A stretch of DNA of 64,000 bases from Trypanosoma brucei (taxonomy: Eukaryota): assembly GCA_000002445.1 (NCBI GenBank), contig CP000071.1:1728001-1792000 (forward strand), written 5' to 3'. A model generated the notes under the pieces. That model was not told the DNA's origin and did not search any database. It saw nothing but the letters and a program-made list of their open reading frames with translations. How positions within the stretch are numbered: the first letter of the stretch is position 1; each line of letters opens with the position of its first letter. A program made the translations under genes and the position numbers. Shown in pieces: positions 9,550 through 12,590 of this stretch.

Positions 9550-12500
9550 GTATCAAATGGCCAATCGCTGCGGAAAGGTTGTGCTGGTGATAATTCCTTG
9601 GGCATCAGCGTTTGCACTTTATCCCCTACCGTATGCGGTGCATTTGGCCTCGCCGGCCGGGCAGTTATGGTCATGTTCGCCTGCGTTCTCCATATCAGCA
9701 TTGCTGCCTCCCACCGACGGTTCTCCGGGGCTGCCGCACGGCAAACCGCCTTCGACCATTTCATTTATATCATCGCCCGCCGCCCCCCTCCCCCCCCCCC
9801 CACACACACGCACACACACAGACAGAAATTATGGATTCGGCAGAGTCCTGACGTGGGCCTTGGTTCGCGCCACCGTCGCTACAGTTCCCACTGCTCGCTA
9901 GCACTAATGATAGGCGCCGCCCGTTTCCGTTTGGGTTCGGGAGCTCCTTCTCCGATGGCATCACTATGGTTGGATCCCGTTTCATTATTCGCGCGTTCTA
10001 GCGAATTTGAAGCTTGCACAACGCTGCCTTCGGCCCCATCCGAGAGGGCGGGCAAAGCGGGGCACACATCCGCGTGCGTTCACCCAACCCCCTCCACCGC
10101 AGGCTGGTTTTCCTTGATCCGCTCGCCTTGTCGGTCTCGGTGCTTTCTCCCCCTGCCGCCTCTTCCATTCCATGCCGAAAACGAGAAACCGCGCGGGGGT
10201 TGGGTCACATTGTCATTTGGTGTCTCCCCAAGGGTTTCCGACGCCCCAACAAATACCCACCGGTGAGGTCCCCGCGGTTCCCCCTTCCTTTTCCGTCCCA
10301 TCCCACCCCTTCGCGTTTCCCGTTATATCCGGCCCCGCCCCACACATCTCTTCGGCCCGACGTGCTCGCGTAACGTCGATATCGGGCGGTGTATGGGTGA
10401 ATGGCTTCAAAGCATTCTTTTAGAGCTCTTCCTGGGCCCGAGTCATTTGACTTATGGTCGCCCTTTGCCGAGGGAAGGTCAAGTTAGACTAGGGACATAC
10501 CGCCGGATCGCGGACCCTCTCTGCCCTGGTCGCGGGTATTGGCAGAGGCGGCCAACCCGTTGGCCAATCATTGCTTGATATTGCTTCCCTGTTTCTGCCC
10601 CTTCGTTATGGCAACAGCACAATGTGTATTCAACAGAGCGGCGGCTGAGGGGGAGGAGGGTTGTTCTACGGGATCACCCGCGTCCCTGGGCGGCGCCACT
10701 GCGGGTCGAAAAAGAGCAATTTCCTCCGACCGAGCGCGCTGCGTCCTCTTTGGCGCAGACCGAACGCCACCGAGAGGATTGGTTCTCTGCGTGTTGAACT
10801 CCAATCCAACATTGAAACCGATGTATTCCCCATGGCGTTTCTGCCCCGTGACGTCCGAAAAATCGTCCACGGTGAAGGCCGCTTTCGGCTATGGGAAAAG
10901 GTTTCCCTTGCCTGATATTTTGTCCCTCATTCCTTTCCATACCGCACTGACCAAACACAAGTCGTCCCGAAACGATCGCATTTCTTTTGAAAAGTGTAAC
11001 GCCTTCCCTCGTAGTAGGCGAGTGATTTCATCCCCTCTCCGGGTTCGAAGGGTCTTAAGGCTCCTCGAGGGCCGCAAAGACCCCGCGAAATACAACCGCC
11101 GAAGATTTTTCTGGGCAGCTCGGGCACTTTTTTTTTCGTAGCGGCGCGTTCCACCCCTTCGCCATTCCCATACGTACTGCCTCCGCCATGTGGTTCCAAA
11201 CCAAGCCTGTGTCTTACCATTCTCTCGATCACGCCCCCGTACGCTGTTCGCTTCGACGCACCGCCCGGGATGGGGAACCGAACGCCCGGAGCTCCTTTTT
11301 TGTGCGAAAGGTCAATGCTTTAAGGCTTCCGCATCACCGCACCGCGGTCCGCAGGGGCAAGCCAGCCCCTCCCTCGCCGATATTTACGAAACCGCTGATT
11401 TCATACAAAAGCACCAACACAAGCGATCGACGACCCGGGGAAGTTCCGACAACGGCGTTACGCCATCACCGTCGCGCCGTCGAAGCGCGCCGTCGGCGGC
11501 ACCACAGGAAGAAACCGCCACCGAGGGGTTCGTTTCAGTCGAGCGACGGTGATGGCATAACACCGTTGTCGGATATTTCTTCCCCAAAGCCATTCAAAGG
11601 CATGTGGCACAGAGGCCCAAAACCAAAACATTTCCCCCCTACAAACACAACATATTGGCATTTAAAAAATTCCCCAGACCTCCCCGCGCATGTGGATTCG
11701 TAGAAGGTTGCCGCGCAGCGAGGGGCAGGGCGCTGCAGCCCTCTTGAGGGCCACCGGTGCTTCAAAAAAGTCCGCAGGGAAGAAAAAGGGTCGCGAGGCG
11801 TTCGGAAGACGCTTTGCGGACAACACGGCATTGGCACCGTGCGGCACCTCCTTCCAAGCGAACCTCTCCGCTCACCCGCCAGAGCTCAGGCGCTCGGTCC
11901 CCACAGCACCTTCAACGCTGCGGACTGCCCGGCGTGTGTCGCGCTCGCTTCCCAAGCGCGCAAAATCGCGCAAACACGTCGAGCCCTCCAACCATCGAAA
12001 TTCGATGATGTGACATGTATCCTTCTCCATTTCTTCCCAAGACCCCGTTCCAGCCCACGTCTCCAATGAGACTCTGACCATATGGGGCAGAAGGGCGGGC
12101 CGGGGCGGAAATGCAAGAGGAGGGGGCTTGAGGTCGCTTCCATCAAAAAAGAGGGGAGAGTCATCGCGTGGCACCCGCGCTCCGTGATGTGCTTTGTTGT
12201 GGCGGTTGGATCGTACTTGGAACTACGTTCTTTGCTCCTGGAAGGGTGCATTGGGGCGGCGATCGCATGGCGGAGTCAGCCCGTTCCACTTTGTAGACGT
12301 GGTGCAGCCGTAATACGGGGTGCATTTCTGCACCCGAGGGAGACCGGTTTATATGAGGAGGTGCGGACGGGAATGTGGTCGTGAAGTAGGTAGCCTGCAG
12401 CCGCGCCCCATCCTTTTTGCTCTCTTTTTTTCTTTAAGGGGAAAAAGAGGACCAATGAAATGGGGGTTGCGGTTGTTGAGAAGAGAAGGGGAGGGGTTCT

Positions 12501-12590
12501 GTGCCGTACTATTTCAAATAGCAACCCCCAACACCTTTCAGTTATTTTTCTCAACCCGTGACAGACACCAGCAGATGCCACACTAAATTT
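9550..12590. other. GC-rich island of about 3 kb, ORF-saturated in all six frames and apparently non-coding. Candidate degenerate retroelement remnant or non-coding RNA locus. Boundaries are approximate
   Basis: There is an abrupt rise in G+C relative to the flanks. Many overlapping 60-220-aa ORFs occur on both strands in every frame with Arg/Pro/Ser/Ala-rich translations, as expected for GC-rich non-coding DNA. A C-run/(CA)n tract lies at about 9782-9830. No coherent single reading frame exists. Confidence 0.45.

Follow-up and report, generated by a model that had tools for sequence, protein, structure and literature searches.

Chromatin marks define the head-to-tail boundaries between transcription units of Trypanosoma brucei, at which a single termination region precedes a unidirectional start region: H3.V, H4.V, and base J are followed by H2A.Z and H2B.V. 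At these boundaries, tRNA genes or other genes of RNA polymerases I and III are often present. The coincidence of a synteny break, a boundary between same-direction units, and retroelement debris is already well described for trypanosomatid genomes. Such debris includes the DIREs, kilobase-scale, noncoding, frameshifted, and stop-ridden elements of ingi-clade origin, which lie at breaks of synteny and between directional gene clusters, as does the island reported here. The DIREs described in the literature are about 5 kb long, were identified via similarity to ingi/L1Tc proteins, and often retain a 5′ signature of 77 to 79 bp (PMC3820030, PMC4035085). Related domains of 11 to 16 kb at strand switches of T. 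cruzi separate divergent units and serve as centromeres (Obado et al. 2007, PMC1868937).

Here we analyze an island of GC-rich DNA at positions 9550 to 12,590 of a 64-kb window, that is, of the whole stretch of DNA considered, which belongs to chromosome 8 of T. brucei TREU927. The island shares features with the systems above, and we argue that it is probably a strongly decayed relative of the DIREs.

Results

The island is contained in a stretch of 5.3 kb without any ORF of at least 200 codons (9092–14,428). Both genes that border this gap are on the + strand, namely a gene for a 304-aa protein upstream, which from the gene order is probably Tb927.8.5920, and a gene for a 472-aa protein downstream. 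In the preliminary description the gap was taken to be the largest one, but a longer, AT-rich interval of 5.7 kb, also devoid of ORFs of at least 200 codons, extends from 47,419 to 53,105. The island contains Tb927.8.5930, an entry in Table 3 of PMC3332058 as a transcription "stop/start" site. The proposed status of the locus as a head-to-tail boundary is based on this single published table entry (PMC3332058), on the pattern of synteny, and on a switch in skew near 12,100. We also considered a centromere but rejected it, as an AT-rich repeat array is missing from the window and the gap is flanked on either side by + strand genes.

Elevated GC had been claimed for the island beforehand, and computation confirmed it. 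The GC content is 57.4% (0.574) for 9550–12,590 and 0.581 for 9550–12,100, compared with a mean of 47.1% (0.471, SD 0.041) for 3-kb windows across the 64 kb. No other 3 kb of the window is as rich in GC: the top five 3-kb windows all begin within 9301–9701, and the maximum outside the island is 0.521. The + strand of the island is C-rich, with a negative GC skew between about 9250 and 12,100 (−0.14 for the core), and nearly all of the remaining window is positive. The sign flips near 12,100, and at the right edge of the island (12,100–12,590, + strand) the skew becomes positive (+0.2 to +0.3) with G-rich runs and a T-rich tract at 12,416–12,433, followed by G+T-rich DNA up to about 13,250. GT-rich promoters occur in T. 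brucei (PMC5579346), and we regard 12,100–12,590 as a candidate start region of the downstream transcription unit. On the opposite side, the flank 3′ of the 304-aa gene (9092–9549, + strand) is of ordinary GC and includes a T16 run at 9291–9308 and a T6A10 tract at 9424–9439. The tracts named in the preliminary description were all found, the T-rich one as given above, the C-run at 9783–9801, and the (CA)n at 9801–9824. At the latter two (9783–9824, + strand), the sequence of T. b. equiperdum IVM-t1 is longer by 324 bases that are missing in TREU927 and OVI, a difference that may reflect a genuine deletion or a collapsed assembly.

Every reading frame of the island is open and no single one dominates, again in agreement with what had been noticed earlier; the longest stop-free runs of the six frames comprise 238, 116, 217, 129, 140, and 130 codons. 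Runs of at least 238 codons appear in 22% of dinucleotide shuffles of the island. Stop codons total 125, about 20% fewer than the 159 ± 9 of the shuffles. A frame-switching path test for stop avoidance was not significant on the island, but it is powerless, given that the true DIRE of T. congolense fails it as well. A single conserved frame with syntenic orthologues, which the preliminary description had named as grounds for refuting it, was looked for, and neither such a frame nor an orthologue was found at the syntenic loci compared. Searches with blastn, tblastn, and nhmmer against the syntenic regions of T. congolense, T. vivax, and T. cruzi detected neither DNA nor translated similarity to the island. 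Between TREU927 and IVM-t1, the island accumulated 6 to 11 substitutions per 500 bp in its five bins, compared with mostly 3 to 6 in the flanks. This excess over the flanks, together with the lack of similarity to syntenic regions, argues that the island is under no constraint.

Synteny is broken at this locus in T. vivax, T. cruzi, and T. conorhini. In T. vivax, the sedlin side meets convergent minus-strand genes, and the side of the 472-aa gene opens a unit after a minus-strand ORF; this orthologous unit is preceded by a GC-rich (0.58–0.68), six-frame-open block that matches none of the ingi references. Trans-sialidase-like ORFs are present upstream of the orthologue in T. cruzi, and an RHS gene occupies the sedlin side in T. 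conorhini, two genes downstream of sedlin. A Glucosamine_iso-family gene follows sedlin in both T. vivax and T. conorhini. On the T. congolense contig L007, a frameshifted element extends on the minus strand from about 7126 to 3900, downstream of the orthologue of the 304-aa gene, and is 35 to 50% identical to the T. vivax ingi ORF (E values down to 6e-35). Judged by its sequence, this element is unambiguously an ingi-clade remnant (DIRE) in the same intergenic slot and in the same orientation.

In the T. brucei island, a single faint trace of ingi homology was found on the minus strand at 10,706–10,994, corresponding to the end of RNase H and a linker of about 75 aa in the T. vivax ingi ORF (element nucleotides 3357–3654). 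Read from 10,994 to 10,706, the trace scores 31.6 bits, or 32.3 bits with composition correction, at 34% identity over 74 aa, and carries one frameshift near 10,924 and one in-frame stop. At the end of RNase H, the motifs VF.QCG..RNE and F.F.HCG..RN..AD are paired in the alignment, and the trace retains columns (VF, C, RN, T.R, VR, K, A.F) that are conserved between the copies of T. vivax and T. congolense. An adjoining HSP extends the trace in another frame to a joined alignment of 99 aa with a raw BLOSUM62 score of 103. In 600 dinucleotide shuffles the mean score was 23.2 bits (SD 1.8), and two of the 600 equaled or beat the trace; the reversed island reached 21.9 bits and other GC-rich trypanosome DNA 20 to 25. 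Across 135 kb of real trypanosome DNA the trace ranks first, with 27.3 bits for the runner-up. The shuffle p-value is just 0.02 when the query is the T. vivax element in all three frames. The trace accounts for about 290 bp of the roughly 3-kb island (∼10%) and matches only one of three long ingi-clade references. Compared with the T. congolense DIRE or L1Tco, the segment gave no significant score (z ∼ 1), and it may be that two independently decayed copies are too diverged to align. In T. brucei, the RNase H end follows the stop codon of the 304-aa gene at a distance of 1903 bp; the corresponding distance in T. congolense is about 1726 bp, and the orientation is equal.

The composition of the island on the minus strand is ingi-like and purine-rich. 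Read in this direction, 9550–12,400 has a GC content of 0.58 and an overall GC skew of +0.09. From about 9550 to 11,450 the GC skew is +0.12 to +0.17 and the AT skew +0.08 to +0.20, and the segment 11,450–12,400 has no ingi-like skew. The corresponding values for GC content, GC skew, and AT skew are 0.596, +0.13, and +0.11 on the sense strand of the T. vivax ingi, and 0.52, +0.10, and +0.14 on that of the T. congolense DIRE. We propose the GC-rich core on the minus strand (9550–12,100) as the body of a degenerate ingi-clade retroposon.

Other hallmarks of such an element were not recovered. For reverse transcriptase and AP-endonuclease, tblastn, small profile HMMs, and nhmmer with the T. vivax ingi, L1Tco, and the T. 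congolense DIRE gave nothing above reversed or shuffled controls. Small profile HMMs of ingi segments scored at noise level, no longer colinear chain of multiple HSPs rose above noise, and no trace of the zinc fingers was found in the island. Pr77, the 5′ signature of 76 to 79 bp, had no match in the window, either by blastn and nhmmer with Pr77-bearing references or by core patterns allowing three mismatches. No flanking direct repeat of 7 to 12 bp indicates a target-site duplication around the island. Extrapolation from the trace alignment and the length of the T. vivax ingi would, barring indels, put the 3′ end of the relic near 9580. There is no clear poly(A) relic; the T-runs of the + strand at 9291–9308 and 9424–9429 are 150 to 290 bp past the extrapolated end and could equally be ordinary polypyrimidine tracts. 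Comparison of the island with TbSIDER2, TcoSIDER1, and L1Tco by blastn, tblastn, and nhmmer returned nothing significant. Self-comparison identified no second copy within the 64-kb window, and the search of the island region for terminal, direct, and tandem repeats yielded just a 31-nt inverted repeat and simple tracts. A concatenated six-frame query of a collection of 5.8 billion proteins also gave no match, but this search is unreliable, having missed Tb927.8.5930, which is present there; horizontal transfer from bacteria, considered as well, gained no support from it.

The island had been called unexplained by any feature call, an assertion that is contradicted by the annotation of Tb927.8.5930 inside it (11,188–11,703, + strand). 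The product of 171 aa, an exact match to XP_847423.1, is labeled "hypothetical" or "T. brucei spp.-specific protein." TREU927 and DAL972 both carry this annotation, the ORF is intact in several strains, and its protein cluster contains members from the T. brucei group only. No counterpart was detected in the syntenic loci of T. congolense, T. vivax, and T. cruzi. Its expression was reported as 0.3 rpkm compared with a median of 30.6, and knock-down of CTR9 raises the transcript 9.4-fold (PMC3332058). Many overlapping ORFs are about as long as Tb927.8.5930, and ORFs of this size are expected at the GC content of the island. A six-frame Pfam scan of 9100–13,000 identified no family, but this result carries little weight with regard to a retroposon, since the scan also overlooks the true T. 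congolense DIRE and decayed RNase H segments. Most likely, Tb927.8.5930 is an ORF that arose by chance on the strand complementary to the relic and, as a matter of annotation, it probably should not count as a lineage-specific gene.

Tb927.8.5930 includes a hairpin at 11,437–11,585, with 31-nt arms (11,445–11,475 and 11,543–11,573) that are 94% complementary and a folding energy of −93.5 kcal/mol (z = −9.6). For Rfam, nothing in the whole window reaches the gathering threshold, and 9000–14,500 contains just three subthreshold matches to miRNA-like hairpins. A tRNA scan found none.

Discussion

Our results make it probable that the island is the decayed remnant of a non-LTR retroposon of the ingi/L1Tc clade (DIRE), located antisense in the nontranscribed gap between two units. 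The preliminary description had offered a DIRE-like remnant, a long noncoding RNA, and a frameshifted pseudogene without choosing among them. We favor the first of these because a remnant occupies the slot in T. congolense, the minus strand carries an ingi trace, and the strand composition is ingi-like. The gap would be the end of one RNA polymerase II transcription unit and the start of the next in the same direction, the upstream unit ending after the 304-aa gene and the downstream unit beginning before the 472-aa gene. High GC and a purine-rich minus strand would reflect descent from a GC-rich subfamily of ingi elements such as the one surviving in T. vivax. Neutral decay would then have wiped out nearly all coding similarity and left random ORFs in six frames, one of which would have become annotated as Tb927.8.5930. 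We infer that the whole 3 kb, beyond the ∼290 bp of the trace, is derived from the element. The T. brucei and T. congolense copies may go back to a single insertion, and the relic presumably has no function of its own.

It is rather unlikely that the island is instead native spacer or promoter DNA of a unidirectional start region, unrelated to transposons, with GC and skew generated by the boundary itself (through transcription or R-loop mutation bias, or biased gene conversion) and a match to ingi that arose by chance. Such an origin would accord with the published "stop/start" site (PMC3332058), with T. brucei start regions that are 5 to 10 kb wide and often include orphan hypothetical ORFs (PMC9566855), with the change in the sign of the skew near 12,100 and the G+T-rich DNA downstream, with the GC-rich, six-frame-open block without an ingi match ahead of the orthologous unit in T. 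vivax, and with the absence of most ingi hallmarks. However, the supposed chance match outranks everything else in 135 kb of real trypanosome DNA, exceeds all but 2 of 600 shuffles, and runs on across a frameshift to meet conserved columns. In addition, a true DIRE lies in the T. congolense slot, with equal orientation and comparable spacing to the upstream gene, and the purine richness of the minus strand fits ingi sense strands. We consider it improbable that the island is a composite or a different repeat, for example, a VIPER/SIRE-like or unknown element, with at most a small embedded ingi fragment. Ingi similarity in about 10% of the island, the segment 11,450–12,400 without ingi-like skew, and the GC-rich domains of T. 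cruzi with their mixture of degenerate VIPER/SIRE and L1Tc pieces (PMC1868937) are consistent with a composite, and the 150-nt hairpin and the strain-specific 324-bp indel hint at a complex history. Long terminal or flanking repeats are absent, however, as is any further copy in the 64-kb window.

Very improbable, in our judgment, is that Tb927.8.5930 is a real T. brucei-specific protein gene or that the island is a functional locus for long noncoding or small RNA. The presence of the intact ORF in several strains and in two annotations, the response of the transcript to CTR9 knock-down, and the very stable hairpin could be cited in support. Against these stand the near absence of expression, the many overlapping ORFs of similar length expected at this GC content, an R/P/S-rich translation without a Pfam family in the six-frame scan, the lack of a match in the syntenic loci of other trypanosomes, divergence that is faster than in the coding flanks, and the absence of an Rfam family at threshold. 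It is most unlikely that the island derives from a cellular gene, once located between sedlin and the 472-aa gene, that turned into a heavily frameshifted pseudogene: the deficit of stop codons of about 20% relative to shuffles and the different genes found here in other species, such as the Glucosamine_iso-family gene of T. vivax and T. conorhini, would suit a lost gene, but there is no translated similarity to the genes of the T. vivax, T. congolense, and T. cruzi syntenic loci and no Pfam domain, and the sole significant match is to a retroposon ORF.

Beyond a retroposon remnant as such, one could envisage that an antisense insertion predating the split of T. brucei and T. congolense, and kept in place ever since, was itself co-opted as the boundary element. 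Its GC-rich body would stop the upstream polymerase and silence the gap, its G/T-rich 5′ flank would seed the next unidirectional promoter, and the hairpin at 11,437–11,585 might feed RNAi; we regard this scenario as quite unlikely. The locus adds one more case in which a synteny break, a boundary of same-direction units, and retroelement debris coincide, and its importance would grow only with proof that the relic serves as terminator, insulator, or promoter of the boundary.

In comparison with known systems, the island resembles DIREs in that one of its strands bears a trace of the ingi RNase H end and its sense strand is rich in purines, as in ingi. It differs from those described in its length of about 3 kb and in having no detectable similarity to endonuclease or reverse transcriptase, no signature, and no recognizable tail or target-site duplication. 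With the DIRE of T. congolense IL3000 (CAEQ01001014.1, locus L007) it has in common the slot, the antisense orientation, and a negative GC skew on the + strand. The T. congolense element, however, is well preserved over most of its ORF and has a GC content of 0.52, whereas the island, at 0.58, has no detectable similarity to it. If the two copies are orthologous, the one in T. congolense has been preserved far better, which counts against our interpretation. Like the strand-switch domains of T. cruzi (Obado et al. 2007, PMC1868937), the island is probably a GC-rich block of degenerate retroelement sequence that separates transcription units, but it is 3 kb in size, lies between units of the same direction, and has no link to a centromere. 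Although no tRNA or Rfam RNA accompanies it, in contrast to those head-to-tail unit boundaries of T. brucei that include tRNA or polymerase I/III genes, it resembles these boundaries in its listing as a "stop/start" site, in its near silence, and in its orphan hypothetical ORF.

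Results

Composition and reading frames of the island

The GC-rich island at 9550-12590 has a GC content of 0.574 (0.581 for 9550-12100), compared with a mean of 0.471 (SD 0.041) in 3 kb windows across the 64 kb and a maximum outside the island of 0.521. The elevated GC content reported in the preliminary description is thus borne out. The same holds for its six open reading frames: ORFs of 80-220 codons are present in every frame with none dominant, and the longest stop-free run, of 238 codons, is equalled or exceeded in 22% of dinucleotide shuffles. The six-frame stop total is 125 versus 159 +/- 9 in dinucleotide shuffles, about 20% fewer, and no one frame accounts for the deficit, which is compatible with scrambled, formerly coding sequence, with trinucleotide bias as an alternative cause. 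A tract search recovered the predicted C-run (9783-9801), (CA)n tract (9801-9824), and T-rich tract (12416-12433) on the plus strand. The plus strand is C-rich, with a negative GC skew, from about 9250 to 12100, where the sign flips to positive; the rest of the window, in which all genes lie on the plus strand, is G-rich nearly everywhere. The surrounding gap had been taken for the largest of its kind, which is incorrect: the AT-rich interval at 47419-53105 (GC 0.32-0.41), in which no ORF reaches 200 codons, is longer at 5.7 kb.

An ingi-clade element in T. congolense and a probable trace in T. brucei

Reference sequences were T. vivax ingi, T. congolense L1Tco, TbSIDER2, and TcoSIDER1, taken from the supplement of PMC4035085. 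A T. congolense contig (CAEQ01001014.1) holds sedlin and an orthologue of the 304-aa gene that lies upstream of the island in T. brucei (8177-9091), followed downstream by a frameshifted ingi-clade element on the minus strand (about 7126 to 3900), identified by translated matches to T. vivax ingi at 35-50% identity. Because this element lies downstream of the 304-aa orthologue and matches with E values down to 6e-35, a true degenerate ingi/L1Tc-related element (DIRE) occupies the corresponding slot and orientation in T. congolense, the nearest available species. The contig ends within the DIRE, and a 124-aa gene call inside it on the opposite strand (3861-4235) is probably spurious.

At standard search settings, the T. 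brucei island matched no reference. A match emerged with sensitive seeding when the one in-frame stop of the T. vivax ORF was read through: minus strand 10924-10706 aligns with residues of this ORF past the RNase H domain, with 34% identity across 74 aa and a score of 31.6 bits. A neighboring match in a different frame, 10994-10884, spans the RNase H end motif (VFGQCGMERNE versus FSHCGVPRNAGAD); Pfam analysis of intact L1Tco places the motif HCG...NE.AD at the end of that domain. Dinucleotide shuffles (n = 600) gave a mean of 23.2 bits (SD 1.8), and 2 of the 600 equalled or beat the island match, as was again the case for the composition-corrected score of 32.3 bits. The reversed island scored 21.9 bits and other GC-rich trypanosome DNA 20-25 bits, and the match ranks first in 135 kb of real DNA, ahead of a runner-up at 27.3 bits. 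A query made up of the T. vivax element translated in all three frames gave a p-value of 0.02 against shuffles. Joining the two matches across the frameshift yields a 99-aa alignment that scores 103 raw with BLOSUM62, an estimated 44 bits or so under the usual gapped parameters for that matrix. Its z-score against shuffles is circular, since the segment was picked by the same match. At alignment columns conserved in both the T. vivax and the T. congolense copy, the island has agreeing residues, and the matched segment has no significant resemblance to the T. congolense DIRE or to L1Tco. The second- and third-best matches of the T. vivax ORF, at 52228-52118 (27.3 bits) and 48125-48003 (25.8 bits), both fall in the AT-rich interval, are not colinear, and probably represent noise.

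Within the island, searches for reverse transcriptase, endonuclease, and zinc finger sequences gave no similarity above controls. Neither an extended colinear chain of ingi matches, nor Pr77, the 5' signature of ingi/L1Tc retroposons, nor a clear poly(A)-type tail, nor a target-site duplication was found. A six-frame Pfam scan of the island returned nothing and carries no weight, as the same scan misses the true T. congolense DIRE. An X-joined six-frame query (4964 aa) likewise found no match in the protein collection; this negative is untrustworthy because Tb927.8.5930, identical to one piece of the query, is in the collection yet was missed.

Tb927.8.5930, strain comparison, and neighboring genes

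The island had been described as unexplained by any feature call. An annotated gene does lie inside it: the plus-strand ORF at 11188-11703 (171 aa) is identical to Tb927.8.5930 of T. brucei brucei TREU927 chromosome 8, labeled "hypothetical protein" in TREU927 and "T. brucei spp.-specific protein" in T. b. gambiense. Its wild-type expression is 0.3 rpkm against a median of 30.6, it rises 9.4-fold upon CTR9 depletion, and its feature entry reads "stop/start", denoting the end of one polymerase II unit and the start of a new unit in the same direction (PMC3332058). The ORF contains a 150-nt hairpin (11437-11585) with 31-nt arms (11445-11475 and 11543-11573) that are 94% complementary, and a folding energy of -93.5 kcal/mol (z = -9.6 versus shuffles). 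Rfam returned only sub-threshold miRNA-like matches for the hairpin, which could be a source of siRNA. A C-to-T change at 11456 in IVM-t1 repairs one mismatched arm position.

The island is present in T. equiperdum OVI and in T. b. equiperdum IVM-t1 at about 99% identity. Between TREU927 and IVM-t1 there are 6-11 substitutions per 500 bp in the five bins of the island and mostly 3-6 in the flanks. Constraint on the island is not detectable, and, with no similarity to the syntenic regions compared, it is not a conserved gene. At the C-run, IVM-t1 carries 324 bp of unique sequence (locus L009, about 12860-13190), while TREU927 and OVI have the C-run alone; the difference is either a true deletion or a homopolymer assembly collapse.

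Proteins encoded in the flanks are exact matches to T. brucei-group records. Genes are ordered ribosomal protein L17, ASF1, sedlin, the 304-aa gene, the island, the 472-aa gene, a kinase, cullin, and XPD, from which the 304-aa and 472-aa genes are probably Tb927.8.5920 and Tb927.8.5940, respectively. The 304-aa gene lacks a Pfam domain, and its family is tiny, with 2 representatives in a set of 1.84 billion proteins. T. congolense has an orthologue, but the syntenic T. vivax and T. cruzi loci yielded none. Expression of Tb927.8.5920 is reported to increase along with that of procyclins in acoziborole-resistant cells (PMC8648117).

Synteny across species

No single conserved frame with syntenic orthologues was found, and the island had neither DNA nor translated similarity to the syntenic regions of T. 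congolense, T. vivax, or T. cruzi. The flanks of the gap are on separate contigs in T. vivax: on the sedlin side are a Glucosamine_iso-family gene, a small ORF, and then convergent minus-strand genes, and upstream of the 472-aa orthologue are a minus-strand ORF and about 4.5 kb of GC-rich (0.58-0.68), six-frame-open DNA. This block (SOPI01000121.1, 2500-7200) sits just upstream of the orthologue at an apparent divergent unit start. Neither the ingi references nor Pfam nor the T. brucei island matched it significantly, and two gene calls inside it are probably spurious. In T. cruzi, trans-sialidase-like ORFs lie upstream of the 472-aa orthologue on the opposite strand (locus L004, 1-9500). In T. 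conorhini, a retrotransposon hot spot (RHS) gene (locus L010, 8373-8915) is located two genes past sedlin, after a Glucosamine_iso-family gene. Because the arrangements differ in T. vivax, T. cruzi, and T. conorhini, the T. brucei gap marks an evolutionary breakpoint, with an ancestral unit on either side, consistent with the published "stop/start" label.

Discussion

We consider it likely that the island is an old, antisense, heavily decayed ingi-clade retroposon remnant in a silent gap between same-direction units. The DIRE-like origin, one of the options raised in the preliminary description, is favored by the ingi trace, the T. congolense DIRE, and the ingi-like composition; against it stands the failure to find reverse transcriptase, endonuclease, Pr77, a clear tail, or a target-site duplication. 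The distance from the 304-aa stop codon to the RNase H end is 1903 bp in T. brucei, compared with about 1726 bp in T. congolense. If the last 1.1 kb of the element is projected onward, its 3' end is predicted at about 9580, coinciding with the onset of the GC rise. Position and orientation alone suggest that the T. brucei copy and the T. congolense DIRE may be orthologues. Given a retroposon origin, Tb927.8.5930 would be a chance ORF on the strand opposite the relic.

The main rival, which we regard as unlikely, is that the island is native boundary or promoter DNA and that its ingi match arose by chance. It is sustained by the T. vivax block, likewise GC-rich, where the orthologous unit begins.

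Directly to the right of the island, 12000-13250 is G+T-rich on the plus strand (0.55-0.60), with a GC skew of up to +0.33. As this resembles the GT-rich sense-strand bias of T. brucei polymerase II start regions (PMC5579346), the segment is by analogy a candidate promoter region of the unit starting with the 472-aa gene.

The retroposon remnant that we favor would be of a well-known kind, at most a previously unrecognized member. In T. cruzi, GC-rich blocks of degenerate retroelements lie between transcription units (PMC1868937). The island minus strand (9550-12400) has a GC content of 0.58 and a GC skew of +0.09, with a GC skew of +0.12 to +0.17 and an AT skew of +0.08 to +0.20 in its 3' two-thirds. 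It thereby resembles the sense strands of T. vivax ingi (GC 0.596, GC skew +0.13, AT skew +0.11) and the T. congolense DIRE (GC 0.52, GC skew +0.10, AT skew +0.14).
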